Shown: piece after piece, positions 3,280 to 33,756 of the stretch
How the letters are laid out: each line of letters starts with the position of its first letter
How positions within the stretch are numbered: position 1 is the stretch's first letter
Assembly: GCA_008632985.1 (NCBI GenBank)
Contig: QPGO01000036.1
Location: 248,001 to 312,000, forward strand
Length of the DNA: 64,000 nucleotides
Direction: 5' to 3'
Origin: Psammoneis japonica
Taxonomy: Eukaryota
The notes under the pieces: model-generated
Told to the model about the DNA's origin: nothing
The model's input: the letters and a program-made list of their open reading frames with translations, nothing else
Database searches by the model: none
Made by a program: the position numbers and the translations under genes

Positions 3280-3370
3280 GACACAGTACTGTATTCATTT
3301 GTGACTATCAAGCATGTTGTTCTCCTTTGGCTGTGATTACGGCTGCTTTGAAATCAATAGTCAATCCAAC

Positions 3371-9740: not shown

Positions 9741-11803
9741 CTAATTAAAAAAGGAGGTCCCCCACAAGTCATCTCTTGTCATGTCATTGGTAGATAATAC
9801 AACTGAGCCAATCACCTTGGGCTTGTCCTTTTCCGCCGGGAGAGTACGACATTTTCTGCCACCACTATCGAGGCTGTCGGTGAAATCATCATTGTTGGTA
9901 TTGAATGTACAGCTACTTGTTCCGGACGACGAAGAGGATGTACTACTACTTGAGCTCTTGACTGGCTGGGTTGCTTCTGTCGCAGCCAGCGATAGATGCG
10001 GTCCAATCGGCGAAAAGAACTCTCGAAACACGTGATTGTCTCCAACAATAATTTTGGATGCTAACCTTGAAACAACAAGCTTGAGTCCATGAACAAGCCA
10101 ATCTCGTTCCGGAGTGTTGGATGTCTCAAAAACATAAACCTTCTTGTCTTGACAAGTCAGAGTAAAGGTGTGATCGAGTTTGCAAAAAGGATAAGCTTTG
10201 CGATCAATACTCGAAGGTCGGAGAACACGGACAATGCCTAGCAGTTCAACCGAATGCGGGGTTGTACTCGACAAACTCAGTAGGTTCCTATCCAGATTGG
10301 GTTGGTAGTTGGATCTCCACATGAATTTAGGCTGAATGAGCTTGGAAGTCAGTAGGGAACCCATTTCAAAGAACGCGTGTACAGAAACGGGCGAACCAAA
10401 ATCGTGATCCCCTCCTTCCTCTTCTGGTGACGGATGCCATACCAGTTGGGCACCGACGACGGCCATTTCCTAGTAAAATGCCATAAAGGTAAAGCAAATG
10501 TGAGCAAAAGCAACGACACTAGTAACAACTACAAAATCAAAAGACGTACCCGAATAAAATGCACAACAATTTCACCATCCGTTTGCTGATCAAAACTAGT
10601 CGTCCTGGTTCGTTTCCGATTCACCGCCACTCCCGAGTTGCGAGGAGTAGAAGGAGGCGGCGGTGGCGGAACACTGTTTATAGTATTGGTATCAATTGGA
10701 GGCGGCGCAAGACTCCGCAATTTGGATAGCGGCTCACTTTTGGAACGTGCCATGATGGGTTTCGGCAGTGTCGCCGAGGGACGAGTCGACAATGACGGAG
10801 CAACTATGTCATCATCCGTTCTGGCATTACTACTCGGAGGCTGGGACCTGTTGCTACGAAAGACTTCGGGGTCACTATCATAGTACAAGTCCGACGTTGA
10901 CTCCACATCGGCTAGACTTGGGTGTGCGTTGGATGTTGGCGTCTCGACTTGTGACGACAATCGGACAACGTTGGAAAAGACAAAATGATCATGCGACGAG
11001 GGTGACATCATGGGCGACACATTTGTGTCGCTGTTGGTGTTGACTTCGAGGACTCCATCCATGGATTTCGTAATGCCCCAGTTCCAGTCATCTGATGGCA
11101 TAGACTTTGGACTGAATCGAGCTAGGTGACTCTTGTTTCTTGCCGTGGATAGTCTCGGCGACTCTCCCGGAGTCGCATGCCACGTGTCCCATAGCTGTTG
11201 AACACGTTGGGACTTGTGTGGCGTGGTTGCTGCACAACGATTTTGCAAGGGCCGTTGGAATACTTGTGGTGGTGGCTCCATTGTGGCATCAGAACACGCA
11301 TTTGTCGGTAGATTCATGGTGAATCCTTCTCGCTCATTCCAACACGACGTTGCCGTGCCGCAAGGACCCGACGCCACAAACTGTTGTACCGTGTCGGAAT
11401 CCGAAAAGGTTCGAGCATGTCCGAACCGTCCTGAAGCTCCTTTGGACGGACACAAAAAAGAAGTAACGACTCCTTCCGTCATGAGTGCGAGAGACTCGAT
11501 TGCCATGATATCTTCCATGGATTTCTCCTTGACGAGTGCAGTAGTCCTGTCGATTGTGTTTTGTTTTTGCTGCGGTTCCTTGTTTTGATGATGACTAGTA
11601 GACGCATCACTCTCCTCCGTGAGACAAATCAATAAAGGCTCCTTGTCAGCATTCTCGTCTGTAGCTTCTTTTTCTTCCTCTTCTTCGTCGTGATGATCCA
11701 TGAGGCTCGATGATCTACACAACTTTCGTCTGTGACGAGGTAAAGATAGGTTGCTGTCAATCATTCCGTTTGACCCTTCTTCTTTCTCGGTATTGTCTGA
11801 CAT
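9741..11803 (-). CDS. Hypothetical protein with a low-complexity N-terminus and PH-like C-terminal domain; intron 10470-10549
   Basis: ORFs 10529-11848 and 9741-10466 join in frame across a GT-AG intron. FTLT...YVFETSNTPERDWLVHGLKLVV resembles a PH-domain C-terminal helix. Confidence 0.7.
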
Positions 11804-14126: not shown

Positions 14127-15726
14127 TTAGTCTATTTGAGGTTGTTTTTCACCGCAGGAAAGACAAAACTTTGCGTCAACGGGTAGCTTGGTTCCGCAAA
14201 ATACACAAAATTTTTTAGCTTCTTCTGCTGGCTCGTTTCTCGCTGCTGGTTCGATTACTTCAAGTATGCCATTCATTGGCGTTTTCTTTTCGACATATGA
14301 CTCGTCGTCACTCTCTTGAACGAGGGCAGCTTCTACTATTGTTGATTCTTGCAGGGAATTTAAGCCTTCTTGATGCCAATCCAGCAGCAAATTACTCAGT
14401 TCTTCAAAGCTATCTATAATGGCATCAGCGAATTCACGATGTATCGCGTCCTCCAAATAGTCTCCCGCCCCAATTCCCATTTTTATTTCCTTCATTTCCG
14501 ATATCTCCTTGACAAACTCCTCTACACTCTTGGATGGCGCCTTGTCCTTGTCTTCGGTTTCTGTTGCCTTTGGAACGTTAATTAGTTCCCTCGACCACAC
14601 ACTTCTCATATTCAAACCTTTTGCTGCCACTACATCTTTTGCAAAATCATCACCAACATGCACCCACCACGGTCCAACCATTTCTTGCAATACTTCGGGT
14701 GTCAGTTTGTTTTCTTGCAAGAGTGATCCAAACAAATCTTGTACATGGGGATGTTGACCAACCGTCCGCATGGCCTTTACATAGACACGGTTGTCAGGCT
14801 TGGCTACACCCACGCTTTCGGCATTGATACAAAAATCAAAATACTCTCCCAATCCTTCGACTGTCTGAGGAGACGAGTTGCCATCGGTGATGGCTCCAAT
14901 CAAGACCGGATTGCCTGACGATCCGGTTATACTGCTCTTGAGTTTCTCCAAACACTCTTTGGCATTCGAGGCTAAAAAAGAGGGGATGACATCGTGTCGC
15001 GCTCTTGTCCAGACGTGAAAGGCCTCGTCCGCAAGCGACATGGATTCCTCCTCTGAAAAATCATTGTGTTCTTCTAAAATGTACTGAATTGCATCCTTTC
15101 GCAAAAGGGTCAAAAGAACCGGTGCCTTGGGTTCATCTGGCGGTGCATCCTTCTCTTTTGTATCTTGTTCCATTAGTGGACAGTATCGCGGTTTTGACAC
15201 TTGAAACAATTCACCCATGACTTTTTCGACTCGAATGGGTTGATGAATGTTGGATCGATCCAAAAACTCAGCGAGCGCATCGTTAGCTGCCGCAATGGTT
15301 GGTGTCGTTTTCCATACGGTATTGTCCAGATCAAACGTAATTACCCGAACTTCACTTTTGGGAAGAGCCTTGAGCTGCTGCGCTTGTTCTGCTTCTCGTT
15401 GTCTGTACATACTCGAGTACAAACCATTTTGTGAGTGGGGCTACGAGTTTCAAGTTGCGAGATGAAACAACATACACAATTATTTTTCGGTCGACTCACT
15501 CTCCCTCATAGTACATTTTTTCCCATTTCGATACTGGTGTATCTTTTTCTTCGTTTGTGGTCTTGGACATGAAACTTGATATCCTAGCAGCAATCGAGTG
15601 CCGAGCTTGTAGTGACTGACGAGGAGGAGGAGGCGCAACAAGAGCCTTTGTAAATAGCATCCATGGAATCACCAACAGCAATCCGAGACAATTGAAAAAT
15701 CTTTTCGATGGAACCAGGATGCTCAT
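14127..15726 (-). CDS. HAD-superfamily hydrolase with signal/plastid-like presequence and C-terminal zinc ribbon; one intron near 15441-15499
   Basis: HAD motifs FDLDNT, ITDGN, KPD, HVGDD and CxxC...CxxC tail (KFCVFCG...KFCLSCG). Upstream ORF 15496-15726 has a hydrophobic leader. The exact splice phase is not resolved. Confidence 0.8.
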
Positions 15727-15980
15727 TCCTTCACACGTCCTTTTCGATCCTCGGGATTTAACTTAGCAGGACAACAATAAAGTGCTATGTCGGCACTTAC
15801 TTCTACTTGTTTGCTCGCTCTTGTTGGTTATTGTGGCTCTGTCACTCTGTCTTCGTCCAGATGAGGTCTGTTTACCATGTTTACGCGCGAGCTCGTATTT
15901 TTGTGGGAAAATTCCGGATTTCTCGTACGGGATGCGCGCGCGCGCTCGCCAACAAAATATTTTCAGCGATGGGTCGAACC

Positions 15981-16514
15981 GAAAGACATCATAGAATGTT
16001 GTGTTAGCGCTAGTTCCGTGTATCTGCGTGTTAAGTAGACACACGGATTGGATAAAGAAGCTTCATCAATTAGAACTTTTATATGTATCCCTTCGTCCCA
16101 GATCAGCTCAAGACGTCCTCAATGGGAGGATGGAGCTGGCCCATCCCTCCACAAACACCAAGTGACCCCACTTGGGCCAGACCACTCATGCGGAACGATC
16201 ACCAACCCACCACGCACAGAGACCACCGACACCACACTGAGCAGACAACAAAAACCTGGCAACATGCTGATGACGGCACCAGAATCAATTCGATGTCACG
16301 CGCACAGCCCAAGAAAACTGCACACAACAACCACCCCTTGTTCGTGTCGCTGCATTGACTGTGCAATGTCCACTTTCTCACAGTGCTGCAGGTTGAACGG
16401 AAAGACATCATAGAATGTTGTGTTGGTGCCAGTTCATTCCGTGCATGCATCTGCATGTTGTGCAGACACAAGGATTGGATGAAGAAGCTTCATCCATTGG
16501 AACTTTTGCACGCA
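15981..16514 (+). repeat. Direct duplication of about 110 bp: copy A 15981-16087 (unmutated) and copy B 16400-16514 (TpA-hypermutated)
   Basis: Both copies begin gaaagacatcatagaatgttgtgtt. 10 of 11 TpA in copy A are TpG or CpA in copy B. Confidence 0.9.
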
Positions 16515-17060
16515 GGGTCATCTTTGCTCCCCACAACCGTTGAAGACACTCGTTCAAGACACTCGTTCATCACAAACTTTTTCATTCCGCACATTGTTCT
16601 TTCTGTTTATTTTCACACACATGTTGCACTTGCCATGTGTTTTTCACACAATTTCCTCAAGTGGCAACCCCGTGCATCATTCCACGTCCTTTTCACGCAG
16701 GATTTCTGATCAAAAATTTTTCTCCCCAATTCGTTCCTGCGGGACTTCATCAATCTTGTCAACCGCCCCCCACAAGACTCAACATGCGTTGATCAGGACA
16801 TGATGAAAATGTCGTTTCATGACCGCAAATCTGTGACCACACAAATCCACGACCACACAAACCATGACGCAAGAACAAACTCATCACCCTTTCATTCCCT
16901 GCAACGCCACAAAGACATTGTCCCTCTCGCGACATGCGCGGTGCCACATCCAGAACCTTCTGCCCAATGCCAGAATGACGCACATGTTGTTTTTTGTCTG
17001 CATCCCAATGGATGTTGGTGCAGCCAATCCAGTGCCTTTTTTGGGTGTGTGCTCTTCTTC

Positions 17061-18056
17061 TCACAATGCTCTTTGTCGAATGCAAGGCACGCACCAAATC
17101 AGACCATGATGACATGCCCAGAATGATGCGCTGCTTTTTTTGTCACTGAACAATCTCACCCCATCATTGTTGTCCCTCTTTTTGGTTCTTGGAGATGAAG
17201 GATGGGATTCTTTTGTGTCGTGCACAATCACAATCGTGGATTCAACCAACGCCGCCCCAATGGGGGGCATGTTGCACCCTTTGGAGGTGGTCGTGGCCAT
17301 GTGATGGTGGTGTGGCAGGCTGAGTTGGCCGCATTTTTGGCGACATGGTTGATGCTGGTGCTGCTGTGGGAGGCCGAGTGGGCCCCATTGGTGGCAGGGG
17401 AGGATGTGCCGGTGCTGTTGGTGATGGTGGCAGTGGCGTCGGCATTGCAGCCGGCAGCCGGCACGGAGGTGCTTCCAGTCATGTGCAGCAGGTCGCAACG
17501 CCGATGCTGCTGATGGTGGTGGTGGAGGCCGTGGCGGGGCCATGGCTTTGGCTGTGGTGGCGGCCCTTGTGTTGGATGTGTTGCTGGACATTTGGATGAC
17601 ACTGGCGGTGTGGGAGGCCGGACCGGTGGTGTGGGAGGCCGAGCAGGCCGCGTTGGCAGTGACACGCTTGGTGCTGGCGGTGTGGGAGGCCGAGTGGGCC
17701 ACATTGGCGGTGTTGTGCTTGATGCTGGTGGTGTGGGAGGCCAGAATGGTGGTGTGGAAGGTCAAGCAGGCTGTGTTGGAGGTGACATGCTTGATGCTGG
17801 TGGTGTGGGAGGCTGAGCAGGTGGAGCTGGTGGCGACAGCGTTGGTGATGGCGGTCGTGGCATCAGCATTGCAACTGGCAGCCGTCACAGCGGCAGTCAT
17901 GCAGCAGGTTGCAACGCCGATGCTGCTGATGGTGGCAGTGGACACCATCATCGGAGCCGCACTTTGGCCGTGGTGGTGGCCCTCGTGCAGGACATCCCTG
18001 GCCCATGCATTCACGTTGCGTGAAAGTGCAGCGTGGTTTTGTGCTGTCCTCGACAA
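17061..18056 (-). pseudogene. Degenerate repetitive ORF relic with internal tandem repeats (SHTTS/SHTAS units)
   Basis: Repeated ggtggtgtgggaggc units at about 17300-17830. No Tyr. Identity unknown. Confidence 0.35.
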
Positions 18057-18405
18057 TCAACCAAGCCAGTCATTTGACAACTGACCTGACCCAACTGGCC
18101 AAAGCAGGCTTTGATGATTGTGTCTGGCAGTTGAACAGGGTCAAACAACCTGAGGTGGCTTTCACAAGACAACCAGCAAGAGGATGCATTTTTGGTCGAG
18201 AAAATTGCCACGTTGCGGAAAAGTGCGGTGCGGTTTGCACTGGAATTAACACAGAATTCCACAGGGACAGTGTTTTGAGCGCCATTGTTTGAACATGGAC
18301 ATTCATGCCAAATGAGGCACTCGACATGCCAGCGCTAATTTTGCGCAGCTTTTTTTCATGCGATGACACAAATGTGTGTGCAATCCTGGCTGCCGCGCTT
18401 TCCTG

Positions 18406-18567
18406 CGCAAGGTCTGACGAAGACAAAGACTTGAGTGATGACAAAGTTGTGAGAGAGAGACCAAGGCAACGAGGTTGCTTTCAGCAAAGCCCATCACAAT
18501 GGCTCCTCTTGTGTCCAATGGGATCATCAATGCTGTGTGTCAGAAAAACAGGGTGTGCGACACTGCA
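18406..18567 (-). repeat. 3' LTR of the Gypsy element (contains the empty piggyBac target site at 18527-18530)
   Basis: Aligns to 23475-23597 plus 24772-24808 (aagacaaagacttgagtgatgacaaagttgtgagagagagacc...cagaaaaa..gggtg.gcgacactgca). Confidence 0.9.
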
Positions 18568-18699
18568 CTCTTCCCTTCCATGATTCAAAATGTGAGAATC
18601 ATTCGGGACTCCAAAACTTTTTAAAAATTTCAACTCAAATTCCATGAGAGGAAACAAGGGAAACCCAAGTGTTGGGGAAAAAACCCTCAACCTCAAATT

Positions 18700-21600
18700 C
18701 GATGCGCGGGACGACGCGCCAAATGTTGAGTTGTTCCACCACATGAGGCACCCGTTGAACTGCAACAGTGCCATTGACGTGCACCTGAACAATGGGACAA
18801 GGGCCATGTGCCTGAGGTGCAAGCTTGGCAGGATCAACTGTCTTGACAAGTGCTTGATCGATGTTCTTGAAAAGCGGCGAGATCCACTGGAACTGGCAGG
18901 TCTAAAATCATGTCACGGTGGAACACCACAGCACCGGGTGAAACCTTGAGAGCCCAGGATGCCACACATTGCATGGCATGCATTGCCGTTGCCAAAGCAT
19001 TGTCCACTGGTTGATTGGCTTGTCCAACATTCTGTGGAGGATAAAGATGAAGCAAAGCATGCAAGACGTCACCAACAGTTTGATGCGCACGTTTGCATGC
19101 CGCATTGGCTTGTGGATTTCTGGATGGCAGCACATCTTCCACTCCAGCCTGTTGCAACAACAGTTGAAAATGTTCTCCAATAAATTCTCTGCCATTGTCA
19201 TGAATGCAGCGGTTGGGATGAAGACAACGAGACAACCAACAATTCTGAAATTGCTGGGAAATGTGTTCGGAGGTTTTGTTGTCCACACAGATGAGTTCCG
19301 TGACATTCGAAACTGCGCCAATGCAAGTCAAAGCGTTGAACTCAATCTCCTGGCCCTGAACATCAATCTTCCAGGGACCAATGAGGTCAACTGCAACTTC
19401 ATTCCATGGCAACAAAGATGCTTCGTGCTCAGGCAGTTCCCCATGTCTGGGACCCAAAGTTTTCAAACGTTGACAATCAGTGCAACAAAATTCTTTGCAG
19501 GTTCGACAAAGGACAGGATGACAAAAATGCATGCCAATGGTTGAATGCATGCGATGCATTCCTGCATGTCCCAATGTCCTGTGATGCCATTGAATCATGT
19601 CAGGCAATGAAGCAGCAGGGATGCAGATCTTCCAGTCTGTTGAAGGAGCATTGGGATGAGCTCGGTGACAAATCACAGGACATTGGCTCACACATTCAAT
19701 CACGAATCGTTCCGGATGTTGTTGTCACATGTCACTCAATTCCACATCAATGAATTGGTGCTCTTGAATTCGTTGCACAGTTGTTGGATTTTGCATTTCA
19801 TCAAGCGAAGGATGGTTCAAAAACGATTCACACAGTTCAGGATCATCAACAAAAGAGGAGCAGAATTGAGAGGGTTCTTCTCGACAGCAAGTGAAACACA
19901 ACACATGCTCTGGGTTGTCAAGTTCTTCTTCATGAGGTGGCATTGCAGTGTTGATTGCTTTGAAATCTGTCAGCTTGCCTTCATTTGGAGTGCACTTCCC
20001 TTCCGTTTGAGGATCCATGCATGTGGCAATTGCAAAAAGCAGTCTGCCAATGGGCTGTCCTTGCCGTCAACATGCTCAAAGGTTGGAGCAAAGTCTTCCA
20101 AGAAGAGCCTCCACCTGAGTGCTTGTTGAGAATTGAGCGCATGAAAGGTGAGATTTTTATGATCAGCAAAAACAGCACAATCAGCTCCCAATGACATGGA
20201 ACGGAATTCTTTGAAACACATGGCCACCGCGAGAAGTTCTTTCTTGATGGTTGAACAATTCTGCTGTGCTGAACTGAGCTTCCGCGACCAACATGCTGCT
20301 GGCTTTTGATCTTGCATGATTGCTGCACCCATTTGACAGTCGGAGGAATCGGTGCAAACATGGAAGGGCTTGTTGTGATTCGGGTGGACCCAAAGGGCAT
20401 CATCCATCATCAAAGTCTTCACATCTTTAAAGGCTTTCTGACACTGTGGAGTCCGCTCCAATTTGCTCTTGCCGGTCAACTTAGCAAGTGGAGCAAGTGC
20501 ATGAGAGTGACGGGGCCACACATTCTGACAGCAGGTTGCCGCACTGACAAAAGATTGTAGTTGTGTCACATTCTGAGGAGGTTGCATCCGCAATGCAGCA
20601 TCAACCTTTTTCTTCCAAGGTCGAACTCCTGCAGGTGTGAGCCAATGGCCCAGAAAATCTGTCTCTTGGATGCACCACTCACATTTGAGTGGATTGACTT
20701 TGAGATTGTTTTCTTCCAGCCTGGACAATGACTTGTCAAGTCAACGCATGTGAGCATCAAACGAATCATCAAATTGAGCAACATCATCAATGTGGGCCTC
20801 GACATTGAGTCCGTTTGCCACTTTTTCAATGACAGCCTGAGCAACATCTGGTGAGGTCTTAAATCCCATGGCCAGCCTGCAAAGCTGGAATTTTCCAAAT
20901 GGAGTGACAATTGCACAAAGGTCCTTGAAGTCATCGTCCAGCTCAATGTGACAGCAAAACATGGTGAGGTCCAACTTGGTCAAAAATTTGCACCCTGATC
21001 GTCGGTGTAAAACATCCTGAACAACCTTGTCCAACTCTCAAAAGTCAGATGCCCATCTTGCTCGTTCATCTTTCTTGGGAGTTGCAAAAGTTCCTGCTGC
21101 CCATTCCGTTGGTCCCACTGGTTCTAGCACACCAGTGTCGCAAAGATGTTGCAGTTCCTTCTTGAAAACTGCCTCGTCTTGTTTGGACACTTTGTGGGCT
21201 TTGGAATGAAAGGGAGTGGCGTTGGCATCAACTTCCAAATGTGCAGTTTTGTGTGGATGTTTGCCGAGAGTCCCATCAGAAAGAGTTTCATGATTCTCAA
21301 GTGCGACTTGAAGTTCATCGCGTTGCTCCTGCATCAAATGAGTTTGTGATTGTGCCACTTTTTCGGTCGACACTTTTTCATGCTTTGCATCCAACATGAA
21401 GGATTGACTTGACAATTCTTCATTGGTTTTGTCCTCCTTGTTGTCGTCCAACACATCCAACCAATTCTGCACTTGGATCCAATGATTGGATTGCTTCATC
21501 GGGATCGTGGTGTCCAACCATTTCATGGCTGCAAACCTGAAATCCAATGCCACACCAGCTTCAGCTGGGAAGTCTTGACCCAACATCACATCACACTTGC

Positions 21601-23240
21601 ACTGTGAATCAAACACTTGAGCCACAATTCCACTTTGTGATGACATGTCGAGAGGATTCATGTCATCCGGCCACCATCTGAAAGCTCAGTTGTCCCTCAT
21701 CATTCACAGTTGGATTGGCTCCCTTGGGCAAAACTCGAGAATGCACAAGTGTGTCAGCACCTCCTGAATCTGATGATGTGCGCAACACTCGCTTGCTCTC
21801 TTGATTTTGCATTGTGCGCGCTGCCATCAATGTTGTGGGCACCACACTCAATGGCTTGGGAGTCACAGTTTTTGGGGTTGGCGCAGCATGCTCCAAGGCG
21901 CTGCCCATTTCTTCTTCATTCACAGCACAGGATTCCATCAGGTCCCCCACACTTTCATCAACATTGAAACACATGCGTTCATCACAACCACACAAAACAT
22001 GAAAAGATTGAGCGAAACGCTCTGACTCGGGCACTTCCGTCCCTTGTCAATTGTGCCAGCTGCGTTGGCCTTGAGGAAAACAACCACCTTGGTCGCATCC
22101 ATTTCCACCTCGCGTCTCACGAGGCCCTCCTTGATCGAAATGGTGCAACTCCATTTGCCAGTCACCAGGAGGAGCTGTTCCAGCTAGATTTCCATGGCCT
22201 TGGGCATCACCGTTGGCTTGGGTGCCATTTTGATGTTGACAATGAGATCCTCCTCCTTGGGAATTTTGTGATCCTTGGCAGCTGCCATGTCCTCAGCCAC
22301 CACAATTGCCTTGACTGCCACAGCCACCACGTCCTTGACCTTGGAAGTTGCCACGACCTCCTCGGCCTTGCGAACCTCTGCCTTGGAAGTTTCCATGGCC
22401 TCCACCTCGACCTCCACGGTCTGTCCTTGGTCAACAGTTTTGGTTGTCTGGACTCAAAATGCAATCCTTCCATTTGTGGTCATGATTGGCATGTGCTGGG
22501 CACCCAGACTCTGGATCAGCTCAAGTGTTGTTCCCTCGACTTCACCCAGAAGCTTGAGAGGATGAAGCATTGCTCTTTTGCTTCTTGCTCTGCTTTTTGT
22601 TGCTGCTCTTGTCAGCAAAGGATTTCTCATTGTTCACGCAGCTGACAATCTCGGCAAGACTGTCGTCAGCTGTTGATCGTCCTGCTCGAGTGTGCATCTC
22701 ATGCCACGGACGAGGAAAGCTGTTGAAGATCATCTTCTTCTTCTGAGCGTCATTGGCTTGAGGAGCATTTCCTGGTGACTTGTTAGAACAGCAAACCAAG
22801 GCCTCCATGTGATCAGCATGTGCCTGCACTTCAGATTTGAACAGTTTCTTCAGGGTCAGCAAACATTCAATCACAGTGTCGCGCGCCTCATTGTCACAAT
22901 GAGACAGGTGAAAACCACTCATCTCTTGATCAATTGTCAGCATCAGCAGTGGTGTCAGTCAAATTTGCCCATTTGACCTCAGCAGCATTGGTTGGTGCTT
23001 CTTTGAAATTGTCAAACAATTCTTTGCCAGCAGCAAACTCCAATTTCACGGCAATCTTACGAAAATGATCCTCAACAAACAACGAAGCTTCAGCGCCATG
23101 GGTGCCATCAAAATGCGGACACTTTCGAGCACGCGCACTGCCATCATCATGCCACTGACTCAATTTCACGTCCTCCAAATCAGAATGCTCAAATTTTGCC
23201 TCACAGTTGACACAGGGTTCTTTTAACGAATCACCCATCA
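18700..23240 (-). pseudogene. Gypsy gag-pol, fragmented by stops and frameshifts
   Basis: Protease VLRTSSDSGG (LLDSG), RT TPFGKF...MG...EAHIDD (YIDD), RNase H VCTDSSDCQMGA...SRKLSSAQQNC...KELL...DHKNL, integrase PWNEVAVDLIGPW...IHDNG.EF...NPQANA. Confidence 0.92.
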
Positions 23241-23474
23241 TGCAATGTGGAGCACAATTGCGAAACAGTCCTCTCCAGGGACTCCACCTTTGACTCCAAA
23301 TGATGCACTTGGCTTGCCAAATTCTGTTCGTGTTGTCTGTGTTGTTGAACTTGTTTCTGGTGGTCAATCACCCAAGCTGCTGCTCTTGCTTGTAATTCTC
23401 TTTTCTCATGTTTGGTCAATCTGTTTGCATTGCCCCCAGTCTCCATCCAGCTCTTGAGTCGACTGCAATTGCAG

Positions 23475-24808
23475 TGCAAGGTCCAACAAGACAAAGACTT
23501 GAGTGATGACAAAGTTGTGAGAGAGAGACCAGGCAACAAGGTTGCTTTCAGTGAAGCCCGTTGCAACGGCTCCCATTGCATCCAATGGGATCATTGACCC
23601 TTCAACCACCAGGGGGGAGCAAATCTCCGCAGGTGGAGATTTGCTCTGCTTGAGGATGTGTGCCGTGTCATGCACTTTTGCAACAACACAATGAACACAG
23701 TAAAACATGTGATGTCATGTGCAATCTGCGTAAAGTGTGCCACGTGCATTTGCTTGTGTGTTGGGAGCAAATCTCCACCGGCGGAGATTTGCTCCCAGGG
23801 TGTGGCATTGTTGCTCCATTTGTGACAGCAACTCATGACAAACTTCATTGTTGAAAGTTGAGATTTAGTTCCTCTTCATTCACAGATGAAGCTTGCAAAA
23901 AACCCGGCGTTGAAAGTTGACATTGAACTTTCTAAATTGCAAAAAGTGTGCCTCCAGATTTTCGGCGAATGCGCGCTCCAGAACAAAATCGCGCGAACAA
24001 AATGTTGTGTCAACAGGAATCATTCGGGTCCTGAGAGTCATCCCGTAGAAATTTTGTGGGAGAGCACTAAAAACAATTGTTGTCAGTCTGTCCATCCGTC
24101 CACACACGAATGTCAACTTCTTGGGAAATCGATTGAAATGCCATCTGATTGACGGCACAGTGTTTTGACTCACACAGTGATGAAGGCCAGCGCCGTCAAT
24201 CAGATGCAGCAGCATTTCAGCTCAGTTCCCGAAAAGTTGTTGGCTCTGATCACTCTCTAGCATGACATCATTTGCACTTCTGCACGCAATGGGAACATTT
24301 CGAAAATGACCCGTGACGTAAAAAGCACAAAACAATTGTGGACGCCTGTGGAATCTACACGTTTTTGTGCTGAAGCTGTTGTGTTCACACAATTTGTGCA
24401 AAAACGGACTTGACTGTCATCGGGTCAGGTGCATTTTTGCAAATGCATTGAAGAAAAATGCACCTGATCAGAAAACAGTCAAGTCCATTTTTTGCAAAGT
24501 TAAAATTCACTGAGGACAGACAGACAGACTTTTCAACAATTGTCTTGGTGCTGTTCTGCACATTTCTGCGCAAATGACTCTACAGCGCAAAAGATTGCCG
24601 CTGTTTTGTGTTTTCCTTGTGTAAAATGTCAATTGTGACCCACGTGACATTTTCGAATGATTCCTGTTGCACCGGCACCGTGTGTCTGAAATTGCTTCAT
24701 TTGCCACATTTGTGGCGTGAGCGGGCAAATCTCCACCCGTGGTGATGGAGATTTGCTCAATGGTTGAAGGGCCAATGCCATCAGAAAAATGGGGTGCGCG
24801 ACACTGCA
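23475..24808 (-). repeat. 5' LTR of the Gypsy element, split by an insertion (23475-23597 and 24772-24808)
   Basis: Colinear with the 3' LTR on both sides of the 1174-bp insert. Confidence 0.88.
23598..24771. mobile_element. Non-autonomous piggyBac-like DNA transposon (MITE-like) nested in the 5' LTR
   Basis: TIRs cccttcaacca...tggttgaaggg. Subterminal palindromes gcaaatctcc...ggagatttgctc at about 23617, 23765 and 24725. Flanks ttga / ccaa and empty site tcaa all fit a mutated TTAA target. No transposase is visible. Confidence 0.8.
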
Positions 24809-25853
24809 TCCTACGACGGTGTGGAGAATGACCAGAAAATGACTGTGACCCAAAAATCGCACACTGTTGCACCAAAGTGCAGCGTGATGCGTGACGTGGA
24901 CCAGGGACATGGTGGTGGACATTTGGATGACGGCGATGGTTGTGACCCTGCCATGCACAATCCACAGTGCTGCATGTTTAGCACAAAAACTGTGGAAATG
25001 TCCACAGCCGGTCAAATGCCAAATTTCGGCATTTCCTGGAAAGCCGTGCTTGTCTCCCTTGAGCAGCGCAATTTTGGAGAAAAATGGCGGTTTGTCGAAT
25101 GCAACAACTGAGCCGAACCCGATGATTGGCTTTTGAAGGTTGAAATGTGCAGTTCACACACAGGTCCAACAGCCCTGATGGGGGGCTGGACACACTCACA
25201 AGAGTGCTTGGGGGTGCTCAGAGGCAACGCAAAACAACACAGGCGAAGTGCGAGAAAATTGCAAAATCACGAGCTAATTGAAACCAGGCCTGCGGGGAGC
25301 ATTGACCACTTGTCTTTCTTTGTGGGTGTGGGTGCATGTGTGCCGTTGCATGCTGCATTGCCTGCATGCACGCAGGGCCCTGCCGCCGGGGCCGGTGTTG
25401 TGGCGGCTGAGTGGCGTGGCCACCGCACCGGTGATGTGGATGACCGTCACATTTGATGTCTCATGCCATTTTTGGGGCTGCAGCGAGGTGCACGGACACT
25501 CTTTTTTTTCCAATTTATCGCCACAACAGTGCATCACACAAACTCACTTGTTGTTTGACATGTTTTCCCCAACATGACTTTTTCGTGTAGAATTCACGAC
25601 AAATTGTCTTTGTGTGCAACTGAGTGCATTTTTGAACATGCCACGCCGGCAATCCCAATTTTTCAGAACTTTCGAGCTCTCCTGAAAAACCGTGCCACGC
25701 ACCCATCATGGGGAATTTGTCGATTTTTTAGGATGTCCCCACAACCTCTCATGTCCTCAATGACAATTCCAAGAATCCGAAGAATTCATCTGCACTGAAC
25801 AACCCATGCCCTTTCAAAATCCGAGGGACACACTTTCAAATTCAGATGGACAA

Positions 25854-25935
25854 CCCAACTGCCCGACTGCCCAACTGCCCGACTGCCCCACTGCCCGACT
25901 GCCCAACTGCCCGACCCCCCGACTGCCCGACTGCC
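25854..25935 (+). repeat. 8-bp microsatellite (gcccgact/gcccaact)n
   Basis: About ten units that vary mainly by CG versus CA. Confidence 0.9.
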
Positions 25936-26044
25936 GGACCGACACGAAAAAGTCTGCAATCATCAACCACTGAGTGGTCAATGAAAATGCCTCATGGGCA
26001 CTTTCAATCGTGTGGAAAAATGACCCCGGGACACATTGAAATTT

Positions 26045-26220
26045 GCGTGCGTGGAATCACACTGGAACACTCGGCAATGGCAATGACCACATGGATTTGG
26101 TGTCTTTTGTACGTGCGTGAAGTCACACTGGGACATTTGGCACTGTCACATGCACTTGTAGATTTGGTGTCTTTTGCACTTGCGTGAAGTCACACTGGGA
26201 CATTGGGTGCTGTCACATGC
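26045..26220 (+). repeat. Degenerate tandem repeat, about 70-bp unit, 2.5 copies
   Basis: gcgtgaagtcacactgggacat...gatttggtgtcttttg repeated. Copies differ by gtac/gcac and ca/tg swaps. Confidence 0.75.
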
Positions 26221-26506
26221 CCCAGCAGAATTGGCGCACAGTTCTACGATGCGCAGAAAGCAACCAGAACACTGGGCACTTCCAAAATCACCAGTGGAAT
26301 TGGCACAAGTTGCACATGTGGAAGAAGACACTAGCTGGCTGCTCTCTAGCTGGCTGGAGAGGACATTCTGTGAGCGTTGCCTTTGTGTGTGGATTTTGCA
26401 CTCACTTTTTTCAAACACAGGCCAAACAGAATGATCATCATCAGCCAACAACGGCAAGCAACTGCATTGCTCAATCCACTTGTAAACGTGCACAACAAGC
26501 AATCCG

Positions 26507-27928
26507 ATGAGTTCTCCGCATTACAGTCAGAAGAAGCATCGAGTTGATGACATTTTCAGCCCTGTTTGCAGCCCCCGCATCATGCAAACAACGACTCCAG
26601 CGCGTTTTGCTAACAACTGCATGCCGACTGGCACTGCTGCTGGTGCGATTGGATCTTTCCCAGCATCGCTTTCCTCCAATCACACTGCTTTCAATGCTTC
26701 ATCTATTTTTGGTCCTTCACCTGTTTGCGGCACTCCTGCCGCCACACCCCCCACCAACGTCTGTGTTTTAGCTCGCAGCAACGTGAACCAAGAACCTCCC
26801 GAAGACATGGAGCTGGACGACGATGACACGCTGCTCGATGCATTGGCAGAAAGCTTTGCACCTGCCAAAGGAACAATTTATGATGTCAGGAATCCCCATG
26901 ATGCAATCCCGCCATTGTTCCGAAGTCTGCCAAGTTCTCACAGTGTCATCGTGGAAGAATCACAGGAAAAGTTGGAAAAGATCGAAAAGCTGCTAGCGTC
27001 AAAGAAGGAAATGGAAGAATCCAGGAAGAAGCAGCGAGAAAACACATGTGAGGAAAAGTGCAGACTTGAAGATGAACCAGCCAAAGCTGAAGCCACATTC
27101 GAGAAAAAGAAGAAAGAGTTCAAAAAAGCAGAATCTCGGCTCAACAGGGAAACAAAGCAAACAAACGAATGTGAAAGGGAGACTGCGGAACTCAGCATGG
27201 CACGCACATGATGTGATCTTTTGTCTGTCTTAAAATGTCCAATCTAACATAAATTGTTTGTCCTCGTTTATGTGGAACAGCAACGTGAGGAAGAGAGGGA
27301 AGTGATCCGCCTGGCAAAAGCCTTCGCTCGCGAATCGAACCGACCTCGTCGTTGGATGGCTGAGGCTACGGTTGACATGAACCGTCTTCGCCAAATGTTG
27401 TGGTCCTCTTTTAATGTCAAAGGCACAAGGGAGCAGCTTGAAGAGGACGAGTTTTCTGGTAGAAGGCTTCAGATGATCTTGCGCATTTGTCGGATTTTCG
27501 GTTTGGATCACAACGGAGGGTGGAGAGATCAATGGAAGAATCCTCCTCATTCTCTCTTTCTACGACACATGCCATCGGCCCCCAGCATGCCTGACAATTC
27601 TGGTGCAACAAAGAAAAAACTGGCAGAGCAAGTTGGAGATGTGCCATTGATGCCGCTGCGAGAAAGAGACATTCTGAAGGAGCCGGTCTCGGCGTCGACC
27701 TCGACCTCAACGTCTGCAACTCAAGGAAACTCTGCATTGGCTACAACCTCAGCTTCAGGCCAAGACAACTCCTCCGACCAACACAAGGACATGTGTTCTG
27801 GCTTGTCGCTAGAAGAATTGGAAGCGGCGTTGAAGGTGTGCTGCAAGGGAGGCATCCCCACAGCGGATGTCGAGCGCACTGTCGAGCTTGCAAGAAAAAC
27901 TCGGCCGACCGACCTTAGAGTTATTTGA
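26507..27928 (+). pseudogene. Unidentified coiled-coil protein gene or TE ORF, only partly mutated
   Basis: ORFs 26507-27211 and 27254-27928 read like real protein (EEK-rich coil, GGWRDQWKNPP) with a probable decayed intron between them. Confidence 0.45.
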
Positions 27929-28399
27929 CTCGTCTGTTCTGTGTTGGTTTGTTCGTTCGTTCGTTTGTTCCATCTCCACCAAAAAGACCAAAAGACTGCC
28001 ATGTGCCGGCACAACCTTCGTTGGGTGTGTTGATTCTTAAATGGTTCAACATGGTCCAAAATCAAACACGATCGAGGCATTGGCTGCTTCTTCTGCAGTT
28101 TCTAAAACAGTGCGTGGATTTCTTTGATTCAACCTTTCCTCAATTCGACAATGTCACAACCCAAACCGAGTGCAACCCAAACTGGCACTGCATTCTCTCA
28201 CTGACCGTTGGCCCATGAAGAAAAAGACGGACACTTGGAAGCAATCACACGCCAGTTTGTCCTCCAATGACATCTTGGCGCTGCAATGCTCTGTACAGCA
28301 GAGAAGGAAAAGAACCCATTTGTTAGATCCCGACGAGACTTTGATTTTGCTGTGCCAATGAATGGCGTCATCTCATGGCGGACATTCTCTCATCATTCT

Positions 28400-30600
28400 T
28401 TTCATTCCTCCATCATGTCGATTTCGTCATCTTCATCTTGTTCATCGTTCCCCAACTTGAACGTTGACGATTGTTGGTTTTCACCTGTGGCATGTGTCAT
28501 GACTTGGTCCCAGAAATGTGCTGCACCTTTGCTCCAAAACTTTGTGTGCTGTGCCGGCAGTTTCACAGGATTGAAAGACGAAAGTCGAGAACATCCGTTT
28601 CAAAGCCATTCCCGTCCATGCGAGTTCACACTTGTTGTCCGGATTAAACTTGCGACTTGTCGTTTCACCATCTTCATTGTCTTTGTCTTGTTCCTCCAGC
28701 TGTTCGAGCCCTTCTCCAGTCCAATTCATTTGGACCATCATGAGTCGAGTGCATCGCTTGATGCTTTGGGCCCACCCTCGCAGATGGCACATGCCAGTGA
28801 TGGGCTTTTGCATTCCAAGACTTCACCTGTGATGTAGTTTTGCTGAGCATTCAAACCAACCTTGGTGTGATGGCATGTGTGACCCATGTCTTTGACGCAA
28901 AAAATCGCCACAGATGCCGACTGGGACGCATCTTCTGTGAGCTTGTTAAATTTCTTTTCCCTTCGTTGTTCCTTGGTGAGTTTATGTTCCCAATTGCTCT
29001 GCATGTGTGCCCGTTGTCTCGCTTGGATTTGCTCCACGACCTTTTGTTCCGTTTGACTTGGATCTAACACTGCTTGGTCTCCCAGAACTTGGGTGAAATT
29101 CTTGAGAGTCAAGCGAGGCTCTGGCGCTGGAATGAGTCCTGCCGCTTGCGCATCTTGAATCTTACGCTGCTTCTCCTCCCGTCGCTTTTTGCGATGTCAC
29201 TTCAGTTCCCGCTTGGTCAGGTGCAGGGTCAGCTGTTTTGCTGGGCCATCCACAGCACCTGGTGGCTTGATGGGTGCAATGTGTTGAACCAAGGTGCATG
29301 TCTTCGAGTGCGACAGTGACGCCTGATCCCAACACTGCTTGTCCAGTTGCTGTGGCTTGTTTTCTTCTACTTTTGACTTGTCTTCGTGTTCTGCATTGTT
29401 GCCAGCGTCTGGTTGTTGCAATTGTGCTTGCGTCTGCTTCGACAAGGCTGCTCCTTCTTGCGCAGCTACGGCCTTTTTCAATCTGCTGGGCAAGAGCTCC
29501 ATGTCCCACCACTCCATCACTGGTGGCATGTGGGTCTTGTCTGAAGCTTCTGCCCGGGGCGGCAAGGATGTGTCTTGCTGCGTCCCTGTCGTTCCACACA
29601 CACTGGCCATGCCCGTTGATTCCACATGCATTCCTGCTTTGCATCCGCTGACAAATCCAGATTGAGTTGCGTTCGCAGCACGCTGTCGCTTCCGCTCTGC
29701 CAATTCAACAAAGGCACCGGGCTCCACAAACACCATGGCCTTGTGCTGCTTCCGTGGTTTGCTTGCGTGCACCAGTCTTTCATTGACGTCTTCCTGCGGA
29801 GTGCCACTTGTCGTTGCCAATTTCTTTTGATTCTTTGCCGATTTAGTCGCTTGTTTCTCTTCCTCTTCTTCCTCTTGATGAGCCAAGCAAGGATTGGATG
29901 GTTTTTCCTTTTCTGTGGCTTCAATGTTGGCTTGGTGGTGGCAAAAGTTGGACCTGCAGTCGACATGTCTAGCTCACAGTGCTTGGCTCATTTCACTGGT
30001 GGCTGAGCAACATCATCATTGGTGTGCTTGGGCGGAGCCATTCCGGCTGACTGACCCTTTGAGCTGCCAATTTAGCCATGATGCTTTCTTGCAGTGCCAG
30101 AGCTTTGGTCTTTGGGTCTGCCGCAGCCGCAGCAGTTTTAGAAGCATGCACCTCATCATTTGCATTTTCACCGGGTGACGACACTTTCGTGATTGAGGGC
30201 AAAAAAGAAGAGAACGTGGAAGATCTCTTCTTGTCGACCCAATTCAGCCAGGGAAGGGGCTCGCATCCATCATTCACCTGTTTTTCCTTGTTCTTTCGCA
30301 GCCGCAGCAGTTTTAGAAGCATGCACCTCATTGTTTGCATTTTCACCAGGTGATGACACTTTCGTGATTGAGGGCAAAACAGAAGAGAACGTGGAAGATC
30401 TCTTCTTGTCGACCCAATTCGGCCAGGGAAGGGGCTCGCATCCATCACTCACCTGTTTTTCCTCGTTCTTTGGTGTTTTGAACTGTCTTGTACATTGAGT
30501 CTTGGGATCCTTCCTCTTGAGATGACGAGATGGTTGTGCCATCCTTGGCTTTCCTCTTTTTTACTTGAGTCTGGTCCCATGTCCCATCTCGAATGCAGGA
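28400..30600 (-). pseudogene. PRP3: Inactivated copy of U4/U6 snRNP splicing factor Prp3
   Basis: Motifs PPVMEWWD, QHIAPIKPP, LTLHLTKRELK*HRKKRREEKQ...AAGLIPAPEPRLTLKNF, AVLDPSQTEQKV, KLTKEQRREKK, LNAQQN, EGGPK, IKRCTRLM, NKCELAWTG. In-frame TGA at 29197-29199 plus frameshifts. Confidence 0.85.
30121..30465. repeat. Tandem duplication of about 176 bp in the 5' part of the PRP3 relic
   Basis: cgcagccgcagcagttttagaagcatgcacctcat...gggaaggggctcgcatccatca occurs twice. Confidence 0.9.
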
Positions 30601-30899
30601 AATCTCTGAAAAGCCATCAGAGCAGGTTCTTGAATTTTCCCGACCCCTCCTCCCCACCCCAAACTCCCCACGGCCAGATGCAGGGTCAGTGCATTGTGCA
30701 TTCTTCAGATTTGTCAGGTCCTGAAGATTTCAAACGACATTGTCATCACCTGACATTTTCAGAATTTTGTGAAAGCATCATTCGCATCACATGTAAGACT
30801 TGCTGTGCTTGAATGCCACACTGTTGCTTGATTGCATGCAGTCAACATGCGGTCTGTCAATCGCAGCCAAAATTTAAAAATTGCACTGGAAGTGTGGGT

Positions 30900-32860
30900 T
30901 AGCCGGCACTGGTGTTGCTGGGCAAAGGTGTGACAGCACTTAAAAACCAGGTTTGGTTTTTTTCTGTTCCCCAGCCATGTCTTTCACACTGCCAAGAGAA
31001 GCTGTTGTGTGGCAAATTGCAGCCATTTTGGCTGTTGGCAGCATTCACAAACTTTGTCTTTTGTGTCAAGAACATTTCCCCCTTTTTGAAGAAGAAGGCC
31101 AAAAGGCTTGTGGCACATTTTTTGGAAAGGAAAGATGAGCAAGAAGGGCACTCCAGACTTCCCAAAGCACCTGTGGAAAGGCTAGAAGGACACTTGCAAG
31201 TGTTTTGAAAAGAAGGAAAACATTGACAATGAGGCTTCAGCAACGTTGAGTTTGTCAACATTTTTCATGCTCCTTCTGGTGTGAAACTGTGCTGCCCTGA
31301 TTCTGCAGTCAAAGATGGCAAGGATGGTTTGCTTCAATGGTCTTGTGAAAGACCAGGTCTTGTTTGGGGTGCAAAGGCTGCTGAGAATGAAAGAGATCAC
31401 TCCATCCATTCGCGCAAGGAGACAAACAAGTCAGAGACAAAGAAGCAGGTGAAGGACAAGAAGGAGCTGGTGCCCGCAGACCACAAGCCATCAGCAGAGA
31501 AAAAAGCTTTGCCAGAAGGGAAAATTGGAGTGCTGTGTGCCATGGCTGAGGAAAGCGATGATGTGGTGCAGGTTGGGTGCATGAAAAAACAGCATTCTCG
31601 TTTTCTTGTTGAGCCAGGCAAAAGGGCGGTCTCAGAGCACAATGAACCATTGCACAAACACTTGGATCATGAAGTTTGACATGAAGTCACTGATCACTGC
31701 AAATGTGAGGAAGGAGCAGCCTCAGCACTCAAGCATGGAAATGAAAATTTGAGGGTGACAAAGGTTGGGAAAACTGAAGAAGCGAGTTCATTGAGCTCAA
31801 GCAGCTCCATTCCCACGCTTCTGTTTCCATCTCACACACTCATCTCAGTCTTTCAACTTGGATGTGGCTCATGTTCAGACAATGGGGGAGGTGATTGGCC
31901 TTGGTTGTGGGTTGCACAATGTGCGCAAGAATCAAGGGGCAGCCGCACTTGACAGGCAGATGGGCACCTGTTTGACAAAGGTTGATGGTTTCACTTGTCA
32001 GCCACAAAGTGACCTCCTTGTTGCAGGTCCTGGTGACAAGGCAAAGTTCCAACACGGTCGCAGCAAGCACTGTCAAGATGTGCCAGCCTGGGCTGCAGCA
32101 GCAACTCTCCAAGCTGATTTGACAAATTTGGCCACTGGCAAAGCTGCGACATTTGACCGACAGCTTGTCAAAGTTTTGGCCAAGGTCATGCACTGTGAAC
32201 CAACCAAAGTCTGTCTCAGGGGCGTGCTGACCATGGCAGCTGTTTGCAGCATCAGTTTCTTCAGCTCAGACTGTGCAAATGTGCAAACGACACATTTGAG
32301 AAGGTGACAAGGAGATGATGGCCCAAGATGAAAAAGAAGGAAAGCTGCCAAGCAAGCAAGAGAAATGCCATCTGTTGGCGCATGGTTTGACAAATTCAGA
32401 CAGATGGGTGTCCCTGCTGGCTGCTTCTGTGAGTTCATTGGCAACATCAATTTGCGCCAATTTGGAGAGCATGTGCAGTTGCACTTGCCACTCCCAGAAT
32501 TGGGCAAGGAGGCAGCCAGGATCATTGCTGACCACATGACCTTGCCACTGGCGGCAGCAGGCAATGTCTGACACCATGCCACCAGCGGCTCTTCAGTTCT
32601 TGAAGAAGATGGACTTGTGTGCTGCATCATCCCCAAAAAGGGTGCAGCACTTGTGCAGGGCAAGGCAGGCAGATCAAATGGGAGGAGCAGCTTTTGAAGT
32701 GCAACAGTGGCTTGAAGGCAATTGAGAACAACAACAAGAGAGCCAAGTGGGCTGAGCGAGATCAGCGCAGCAGCTGGCGAGGCATTGGACAAATCAAATC
32801 ATCACTTCTGGCATTCCTGTCATCAATTTTCTCTGACGCTGTTTTCATGCTTTTGCCCTG
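30900..32860 (+). pseudogene. Degraded unidentified coding relic
   Basis: Successive protein-like plus-strand ORF pieces (31281-31679, 31858-32307, 32365-32571) with no Tyr. I recognise no family. Confidence 0.35.
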
Positions 32861-33756
32861 ATGGTGCAAATGTCAATCAAGCTCCAAGAACCTGAGCAAC
32901 AAAAATCAACACAGTGTTTCTGCACATTGTGGGAATGTGCAGAGCCCCCACGAAGCTGTTTTCCCGCCAAGGTCAGGCCGATTTCAAGCTCATCTCAAAA
33001 CACAGCAGGTGACGTGCCGCACAACACAGCCACTGTCAAATCTCTTGGTGCATCTTGAGCCTCTCTCTGGGGGATCTCAGTTCTCCGTGTCCATGCCAGC
33101 ATTGTCTTTGTTTGTTTCGTGCTTCTGCTTCTGGATGTTTCTCAACTCTTGCCCACGTGCACACTCGATGCATGCAGCAGCTGTTGCGGCAGTCAACAGG
33201 AATCATTTGAAAATGCCGCATCAGTCATGATTGACATTTTGCACAAAGAAAAATGCAAAATCATGCAGAAATGCACACACAATGTGATTCAAGACAGTGG
33301 CTGAAATTCTGTGCAATGACTTGGAGAGCTGCGACCACTGTTCCTCCCACTCAGCTGTGAGAACGGCGAGCATGTTTGTCCGCGTGAAAATGTTCGGGTG
33401 TGCTAAATCAAACAGCAACCGGGAATTAGGAACTTTCTGTTCTCCTCCAATTTTTGAATGCATCACACCATCACTGCCACCCGAGAATAAAACCCCGGTT
33501 GTTGTTGTTTGTATTGTCATTGTTTCTGAATGTTTGCAAATCACGTGGTCAGTGCCCCCCCCCCCGAAGTGGGGTACCTGGTGTCGTACGCCGTTGATGC
33601 ACTGCGCACTGCGCCGGCACGGTGCTGGCGGCTGCTGGCTGCGCTGCGTTGCAATTTGCTACGGTACCGGTATTCCCAAGCCTATTTTCTAGCGTCCTCC
33701 TCTTTGTATCTTTATTCATACGCCATCAGGAAGCCTACGCTCTGCCTGAGACGGAA

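Follow-up and report, generated by a model that had tools for sequence, protein, structure and literature searches.

The stretch of DNA analysed here comprises 64,000 nucleotides from Psammoneis japonica (assembly GCA_008632985.1, contig QPGO01000036.1, positions 248,001 to 312,000 of the forward strand), and the whole of it is referred to below as the window. Ordinary genes, among them those for Rpn2, an epimerase, a HAD hydrolase, an MFS transporter, a 2-oxoacid dehydrogenase E1 and an ADP-ribosylglycohydrolase, surround two long blocks in which the dinucleotide TpA is nearly absent and TpG and CpA are in excess. The blocks fill the space between these genes and contain transposon remains, tandem repeats and a pseudogene; the coordinates are collected in the table. 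Block 1 includes a degenerate Ty3/Gypsy retrotransposon, and an initial annotation, made from the sequence alone, had tied the loss of TpA to this element. We find instead that the process spans both blocks and takes in several repeats, a pseudogene of a host gene and segments that look single-copy.

There are 113 TpA steps in the 28.6 kb of the blocks compared with 1,479 in the other 35.4 kb, a deficit much greater than chance would produce, and the observed/expected ratio (o/e) of TpA per kb is mostly 0.00–0.19 within the blocks and mostly 0.4–1.1 outside them; the twelve dinucleotides other than TA, CG, CA and TG have o/e values of 0.84–1.28. The edges of the blocks are sharp, within tens of bases. 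Dense TpA ends at 16086 and returns at 33404, and the non-coding DNA just beyond these points (15441–16086 and 33404–34040) has a normal TpA density. DNA free of TpA leaves TGA as the only possible stop codon, and each of the six frames runs on open over long distances; between 17000 and 25000 the two strands together hold 98 frames of at least 50 aa in 8 kb, including a 331-aa frame (17061–18056) without a family match. Pfam was run on a sample of 93 frames, chosen by hand from the 171 frames of at least 110 aa, and on nine frames of the Gypsy region; among the scanned frames that lie wholly within the blocks, a single weak CFEM match under the curated cut-off was obtained besides those to the Gypsy element and to the splicing factor Prp3.

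Table. Features of the window, with the dinucleotide o/e of the blocks and the basis on which each feature was recognized
Feature	Position	Strand	Size, composition or basis
Block 1	16087–33403		17.3 kb; o/e TA 0.08, CG 0.54, CA 1.66, TG 1.63
Block 2	43664–54986		11.3 kb; o/e TA 0.04, CG 0.11, CA 1.89, TG 1.83
Rest of window			35.4 kb; o/e TA 0.62, CG 0.98, CA 1.16, TG 1.17
Degenerate Ty3/Gypsy gag-pol	18707–23367	minus	colinear with full-length relatives
Presumed gag part	22047–23367	minus	position only (open frames upstream of the protease); no Pfam match
Protease region	21642–21983	minus	tblastn and column counts
Reverse transcriptase	20741–21628	minus	Pfam RVT_1, E 5.9e-06 (under the curated cut-off); tblastn
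RNase H-like domain	20090–20452	minus	Pfam RT_RNaseH_2 1.2e-23, RT_RNaseH 2.8e-21
Integrase (zinc-binding part and core)	18707–19724	minus	Pfam Integrase_H2C2 3.1e-4, rve 1.8e-3 (both under the curated cut-offs); tblastn
Seven gag-pol fragments	18834–19724, 19970–20740, 20741–21037, 21038–21685, 21663–22046, 22542–22958, 22930–23367	minus	
Probable 5' long terminal repeat remnant	23476–23594	minus	direct repeat of 18407–18527
Probable 3' long terminal repeat remnant	18407–18527	minus	direct repeat of 23476–23594
115-bp repeat, unmutated copy	15972–16086	plus	just outside block 1; 11 TpA
115-bp repeat, mutated copy	16391–16507	plus	300 bases inside block 1
Prp3 pseudogene	28417–30232	minus	Pfam PRP3 and Prp3_C in three frames; tblastn with 12 relatives

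The Gypsy element allowed us to determine the direction of the change. With a 256-aa fragment spanning reverse transcriptase (RT) and RNase H as the query, 298 longer proteins were found at E ≤ 0.001 among 1,728 candidates, and the best 120 of these 298 are at most 67% identical to it, the named ones being from the diatom Nitzschia inconspicua. Precomputed Pfam domains of the full-length relatives include RVP, RVT_1, RT_RNaseH, Integrase_H2C2 and rve. In the window the Pfam matches follow the order RVT_1, RT_RNaseH_2/RT_RNaseH, Integrase_H2C2 and rve, as expected for Ty3/Gypsy, and the Pol order protease, RT, RNase H and integrase is present in tblastn alignments that run colinearly from 21983 to 18707; the RT and integrase scores fall under the curated cut-offs, which is expected because this copy is mutated. 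The first 60 of the 120 relatives gave 199 tblastn alignments, all within 18–22 kb of the window, and for the analysis of columns we kept the 1,055 codons at which at least 20 of the 60 relatives were aligned, dropping 278 codon positions. The coding part is flanked by a 121-bp direct repeat, 106 of whose 121 columns are identical (88%), and this is probably what remains of the long terminal repeats (LTRs), although full LTR ends, a primer-binding site and a target-site duplication were not identified. The element is a dead copy of its family and not an active member, with TSSDSG in place of the protease motif, HIDD in place of the catalytic motif of RT, four in-frame stops, all of them TGA, and at least three changes of frame.

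The near-absence of tyrosine that had drawn attention to the element was borne out, with one tyrosine among the 1,282 residues counted in the seven gag-pol fragments; it lies in the integrase region. The 120 relatives contain 1.7–5.1% tyrosine (mean 3.56%, sd 0.54), and about 37 tyrosines are expected in the 1,055 aligned codons where one is seen. At 25 columns tyrosine is found in at least 50% of the 60 relatives, and it is kept at none of them, being replaced by Cys (12), His (11), Phe (1) and Leu (1). Replacements spread over residues other than Cys and His had been named as an outcome that would speak against a directed loss, and Cys or His stands in 23 of the 25 columns. The YIDD motif of RT reads HIDD (20783–20794, His codon CAC), and the relatives' column holds Y 53 times, F 5 times and T once, so that active relatives carrying HIDD, likewise sought as a refutation, number 0 among the 59 aligned. 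In the RNase H domain, YTDxSDY has become CTDSSDC at two columns that are Tyr in 55 of 59 and 58 of 60 relatives, and PVAY has become PAAC, where the relatives have V in 52 of 60 (GCA in the window) and Y in 59 of 60 (TGT in the window). Two of the diagnostic motifs fared less well. The column of the supposed FLGY to FLGH change has H as a natural residue in 24 of the 60 relatives, with Y in 34 and F in 2, and proves nothing; and while the protease does read TSSDSG (21762–21779), the ancestral ILLD proposed for it is wrong, the family consensus being V-L-F-D-S-G, with L in 30 of 35 relatives at the first Ser and F in 25 and L in 9 of 35 at the second. The family-conserved residues nevertheless support the direction originally proposed, from TA to TG or CA.

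The sequence context of the changes points the same way and reveals a second process beside the first. Of the columns, 502 show the same residue in 70% or more of the relatives, and the window differs at 118 of these, by multi-step changes at 22 and by single steps at 96. The single-step changes are A to G with T before (21, and 3 ambiguous), T to C with A after (19), G to A with C before (17), C to T with G after (3, and 2 ambiguous), transitions in other contexts (13, and 2 ambiguous) and transversions (16). Inferred A:T transitions are thus in TpA context in 40–43 of 49–52 cases, with 9 in other contexts, and inferred G:C transitions are in CpG context in 20–22 of 24–28 cases. The same Gypsy frames thus record two processes, namely TpA to TpG/CpA and CpG to TpG/CpA. 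It had been argued that CpG decay cannot explain the observations, which holds for the loss of TpA, yet such decay is also present in these frames. The TpA-type changes include Tyr to Cys or His, Val (GTA) to Ala, Leu (TTA/CTA) to Ser or Pro and Ile (ATA) to Met or Thr, as well as Thr to Ala, Met to Val and Ile to Val where the TpA spans a codon border. The CpG-type changes appear at Arg columns (at least 50% conserved) as Gln (8), His (6), Cys (2), Trp (2) and one stop; of the four TGA stops at least that at 21040, where 53 of 54 relatives have Arg, is a product of CpG decay. On the coding strand between 18707 and 21983, Arg to Gln/His (14) is more frequent than Arg to Cys/Trp/stop (5), which reflects either a strand asymmetry of CpG decay or chance. 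The suggestion that the process destroys proteins efficiently needs qualifying: a change of TpA creates no stop from a sense codon, so that proteins are ruined by missense and not by truncation, long frames stay open and TGA is the only stop.

Non-transposon DNA carries the same marks. A 115-bp repeat has one copy just outside block 1 and a second copy inside it, and the homology stops exactly at the start of the block. The inner copy keeps one of the 11 TpA steps, five having become TG and five CA; several CpG have also become TG or CA, and the other differences are a handful. The comparison of the two copies, in which about 90% of TpA and a few percent of the remaining positions have changed, suggests that TpA sites changed roughly two orders of magnitude faster. 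Further inside block 1 lies a pseudogene of Prp3, interrupted by TGA stops in frame and, near the C-terminus, by a frameshift, in which none of seven Tyr columns defined by the 12 relatives is kept (Cys 3, His 2, Val 1, Phe 1).

Two further sets of contigs, X1, which is from DNA, and X2, bear on the Prp3 copy. A second copy, about 92% identical (8–10% different), is present in X1 beside the form of the window and is the sole form in X2, which is probably a transcriptome, as one of its contigs is spliced at a GT..AG intron. At 28317 both Prp3 forms are found side by side in X1 (depth 59.2 of 129.1). Between the window and X2 there are 82 sites with C/G in the window and T/A in the read, 56 with T/A in the window and C/G in the read, and 38 transversions; these counts are what is predicted from a loss of TpA and CpG in the window copy, and the context could be checked at two sites, 28317 (CA in the window against TA) and 28321 (TG against CG). 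The window copy is colinear with the X2 transcript contigs and may be a retrocopy or a captured fragment. Two 59-nt inverted repeats (24611–24669 and 33194–33252; 83% complementary, 8.5 kb apart) bracket the pseudogene, and an X1 contig connects 24268 to 33273 on opposite strands; the inverted repeats may mark the termini of a large DNA transposon by which the Prp3 fragment was captured.

The Gypsy family has many copies in the genome, and 3,608 X1 contigs match block 1. In block 1, the segments 26007–28007 and 31343–32676 have an X1 word depth of 62–85, which is the single-copy level, although summed depth is not the same as copy number. Other parts, at 23339–26006 and 30676–31342, are high-copy segments of unknown type, with a summed X1 word depth of about 1,800–11,000 compared with about 60 for flanking genes, and a 32-nt near-perfect inverted repeat (23615–23646 and 23765–23796) lies within them. 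Block 2 consists largely of tandem repeats with periods of 184–374 bases, and Pfam gave no match on its frames. Arrays are found at 46625–47367, 49044–49801 and 51291–53148 (periods 374, 252 and 184–186/371, respectively), their copies differing mainly by swaps between CA and TG.

Repeated sequences also date the change relative to integration. The two LTR remnants differ at 13 positions and by 2 gaps; eight of the mismatched positions are made up of four CA/TG double swaps, three are CG against CA/TG and two, which form one other double difference, lie outside this set. Over 20 internal repeat pairs, some of them tandem and not all independent, the CA/TG double difference occurs 71 times and the next commonest adjacent double difference 8 times. 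Such independent outcomes at the same ancestral site prove that the change came after the duplication. The marks are also symmetrical between the strands, as judged by the 12 Cys and 11 His replacements, by the near-equality of CA and TG over the blocks and by the five TG and five CA outcomes in the 115-bp repeat. Differing outcomes between repeats together with strand symmetry imply that the process acted on integrated double-stranded DNA, and a change in the RNA of the transposon or during reverse transcription does not fit these observations.

The block sequence is reproduced by X1, whose contigs differ from it at 1–8 positions per 0.56–2.2 kb and have a word depth of 52–71, similar to that of the flanking genes (64.6 and 64.8). 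When the window was compared with other X1 contigs of at least 85% likeness, 1,092 transitions and 198 transversions were found; 40 of 1,301 variants were listed, comprising 25 of the TA/CG/TG/CA set, 7 other transitions and 8 transversions, and 35 of them were checked in context, the other five being transversions. X2 is without cover over 16002–24672, and this absence of cover is no evidence for silence. A third run, X3, gave no contig on the window.

The few TpA steps that survive in the blocks are a selected set. Among the 113 survivors, TTAA is 6.7 times and CTAA/TTAG 3.3 times as frequent as among the TpA steps outside the blocks, and ATAT and ATAC/GTAT are found in none of them as against 323 of 1,479 outside. 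Per 1,000 CA/TG steps with the same flanks there are 28–66 survivors for pyrimidine-TA-purine, 4.6–19 for mixed flanks and 0–6.7 for purine-TA-pyrimidine. These flanks suggest a target of the form T-A-T > T-A-C > T-A-purine, read on either of the strands, or just as well purine-T-A.

Of the neighbouring genes, the transcribed HAD-hydrolase gene faces block 1 with its promoter side and an MFS transporter gene lies at the other edge. The HAD-hydrolase gene has a 97-base GT..AG intron (15403–15499, minus strand) in its 5' part, which is skipped by the X2 contig. Block 2 starts about 20 bases past the end of the frame for the 2-oxoacid dehydrogenase E1 (41066–43642, minus strand), the best named relatives of which are from the diatoms Seminavis, Thalassiosira, Mayamaea and Nitzschia (56–59% identity; 67% for the best matches overall). 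The host is accordingly a diatom or a near relative of diatoms and is not Bigelowiella.

We are highly confident of the direction of the change, its dinucleotide specificity, its strand symmetry, its timing after integration, the sharpness of the domain edges and the inclusion of DNA other than transposons. The explanation that in our view best accounts for the data, and which we consider likely, is that a dead Gypsy element in a transposon island underwent, after integration, a region-restricted conversion of TpA to TpG and CpA beside a slower decay of CpG. According to this proposal, a process at the DNA level would turn nearly every TpA of the domain into TpG or CpA, which is an A:T to G:C transition on either strand, and a decay of CpG to TpG/CpA, most simply that of methylated cytosine, would run more slowly alongside it. 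The coding effect would be the removal of all Tyr codons and of TAA and TAG, with ATA, TTA, CTA, GTA and TpA at codon borders struck as well. The targeting may be guided by silent or methylated chromatin and not by homology between repeats, because one copy of the 115-bp repeat has been spared and apparently single-copy segments of block 1 are affected.

The nearest known case is that of the chlorarachniophyte Bigelowiella natans, an alga unrelated to diatoms and the only one from which hypermutation of foreign DNA at TpA has so far been described, on the basis of experiments. According to the preprint, 230 of 231 new mutations in two integrated viral regions of mutation-accumulation lines were A to G or T to C, all stated to be on TpA, with a rate of about 6e-7 per site per generation in the viral regions (Mettrop et al., 2026; bioRxiv 10.64898/2026.01.13.699255). 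The preprint also reports 124 clusters in the B. natans genome that are poor in TpA and rich in CpA and TpG, as well as 324 TpA-poor coding sequences enriched for reverse-transcriptase and DDE domains, and proposes an ADAT2-like deaminase for the hypermutation (bioRxiv 10.64898/2026.01.13.699255). The two cases agree in that TpA becomes TpG and CpA on both strands, in the confinement to discrete foreign or selfish regions in which TpA is low and CpA and TpG are high, and in the presence of RT-bearing frames among the victims. They differ in that the host here is a diatom-like stramenopile and not a rhizarian chlorarachniophyte, in that the loss is near saturation here (TA o/e 0.04–0.08) compared with a Rho of 0.45 reported for an actively mutating virus region, and in that a relative saturation was observed here whereas the rate is described as directly measured there. 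By analogy, the process in the window would be of the same kind as the TpA hypermutation of B. natans, that is, a targeted and probably enzymatic genome defence. A term search of the preprint gave no mention of diatoms, and a full-text literature search, which does not cover subscription journals, found no report from diatoms of TpA loss or of mutation resembling repeat-induced point mutation (RIP).

Comparison with other known systems helps to delimit the process. In the RIP of ascomycetes, C is changed to T mainly at CpA, which creates TpA and stop codons. The window resembles RIP in that dense transitions confined to repeats and their surroundings have inactivated transposons and duplicated genes and have left a dinucleotide scar; it differs in that TpA is removed and not created, with a gain of CpA and a higher GC at the sites affected, and in that the process makes no stops. 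RIP moreover depends on duplication; a dependence of this kind is not evident here, where the 115-bp duplicate is mutated in one copy only and parts of block 1 with single-copy depth (which is a summed depth and not a copy number) are affected. Decay of methylated CpG would account for the CG o/e of 0.54 and 0.11 and for the changes of Arg to Gln, His, Cys, Trp and stop, the methylation itself being putative, but such decay cannot remove TpA, and the loss of TpA in block 1 exceeds that of CpG. The clusters of context-dependent, deaminase-type transitions in selfish elements are reminiscent of hyper-editing by ADAR and hypermutation by APOBEC; however, these act on RNA or single-stranded intermediates and on one strand, whereas the domain described here is integrated double-stranded DNA marked equally on both strands.

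The chemistry can only be proposed tentatively. Deamination of an adenine preceded by T is a possibility that we put forward with less than even confidence, and the enzyme concerned may have a 3' preference of T > C > purine. The TpA step is self-complementary and, in sequence, A to G after T is the same event as T to C before A, so that the mark could also stem from chemistry on thymine: a modified T of the 5-hydroxymethyluracil or 5-formyluracil type in silent chromatin would mispair with G and give T to C before A. Formyluracil is linked to T to C mispairing, and purine-T-A is as good a reading of the flank rule. An ADAT2-like adenine deaminase is nevertheless the sole hypothesis published for the signature, and we regard an origin in thymine as unlikely. 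The idea that one mechanism flips the pyrimidine in CpG as well as in TpA was set aside, as T to C amination is not known to occur.

The remaining alternatives dispute not the chemistry but the process itself. It could be that nothing was targeted and that the blocks are simply very old neutral DNA at the equilibrium of an ordinary mutation spectrum in which TpA and CpG are the most mutable steps, and in the 28 one-kb segments of the blocks a lower o/e of TpA does go with a lower o/e of CpG (Spearman 0.45, p 0.016), as ageing would lead one to expect. The non-coding DNA outside the blocks, however, has normal TpA right up to sharp edges, the 115-bp repeat is unaltered in its outer copy and has been erased in the inner copy 300 bases away, and just 2 of the 13 LTR mismatches fall outside the TA/CG/TG/CA set, so that TpA must have changed far faster than other sites; we therefore consider such ageing improbable. 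Even less probable is a change before integration, through ADAR-like A-to-I editing of double-stranded RNA or error-prone reverse transcription that was then copied into DNA. This would suit the fact that the best-studied victim here is a retrotransposon, and ADAR prefers a U ahead of the A that it edits, according to the B. natans preprint (bioRxiv 10.64898/2026.01.13.699255). The LTR remnants, which are identical at integration, nonetheless differ by independent TG and CA outcomes, the tandem repeats, the host pseudogene and the boundary repeat share both the signature and the edges of one contiguous domain, and a near-complete loss of TpA is not expected from partial editing of RNA, so that this alternative is already largely refuted.

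Methylated motifs mislead some long-read base-callers, and the platform used for the assembly and for X1 is without record, which leaves room for the idea that errors of base-calling or assembly at modified bases wrote TG and CA for true TA and CG. X1 contigs matching the blocks nearly exactly at the depth of flanking genes, the frameshifts, 16 transversions and 22 multi-step changes of the Gypsy element at conserved columns, and the presence in X1 of the mutated Prp3 copy together with its unmutated paralogue make an artefact very improbable. Least probable of all is foreign DNA, viral or horizontally acquired, that natively avoids TA and CG, an idea to which the integrated viruses described as the hypermutated regions of B. 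natans lend some colour, but conserved Tyr, Ile, Val and Leu codons have moved off the family consensus, the copied host gene and the copied stretch of neighbouring host DNA have been altered likewise, and viral Pfam domains are absent among the 93 frames scanned.

Several points nevertheless weigh against a region-restricted hypermutation of TpA as we propose it. The CpG loss is strong here and goes without mention in the B. natans preprint, and the two cases may therefore differ. The word hypermutation itself rests on relative saturation and not on a rate measured from this single window. X1 may be the window's own assembly data and so not independent of it, although an artefact is still unlikely. 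The signal of context is weaker in Prp3, where, measured against 12 distant relatives, a TpA or CpG context accounts for 13–14 of the 34 mismatches by a single step (TpA 7, CpG 6–7, other transitions 10–11, transversions 9). Finally, the flank rule is derived from 113 sites, and the 23 Tyr events show a like trend that is not significant (Cys with a preceding pyrimidine 9 and purine 3; His 5 and 6, respectively).

A metagenome scan for hypermutated siblings of the Gypsy element gave 58 pattern matches and two confirmed relatives, neither of them depleted in TpA. These two, 55–56% identical, have a TA o/e of 0.65 and a CG o/e of 1.05–1.06, which is a normal composition and serves as a baseline only.

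With this result, a type of genome defence described only recently gains a second major algal lineage, and the window contributes the saturation of the loss, the sharp edges of the domains, the co-occurring decay of CpG and the candidate flank rule. For the analysis of algal genomes there are several practical consequences. Gene finders would call false long frames in TpA-free DNA, and annotated algal 'proteins' that lack Tyr and are rich in Cys and His may stem from transposons that were hypermutated. Dating by LTR divergence would be badly inflated, since 11 of the 13 mismatches in the 121-bp pair are at sites derived from TA or CG. An organism with this scar would also provide another system, beside B. 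natans, where the enzyme could be sought, and a natural adenine deaminase acting on double-stranded DNA would be of interest to research on base editing.

The same scar at saturation in a diatom-like genome points to a wider, and possibly ancient, defence in ecologically dominant algae. It is conceivable, though on present evidence doubtful, that diatoms carry a chromatin-guided defence that edits DNA by deaminating adenine after T over entire silenced transposon islands, with the 3' preference given above, homologous to the process of chlorarachniophytes and old within the stramenopile-alveolate-rhizarian assemblage, which would operate alongside the CG methylation that diatom transposons presumably carry. 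If this were true, it would be the first natural adenine-editing defence in a major phytoplankton group, a 'RIP in reverse' that kills genes without making stops.

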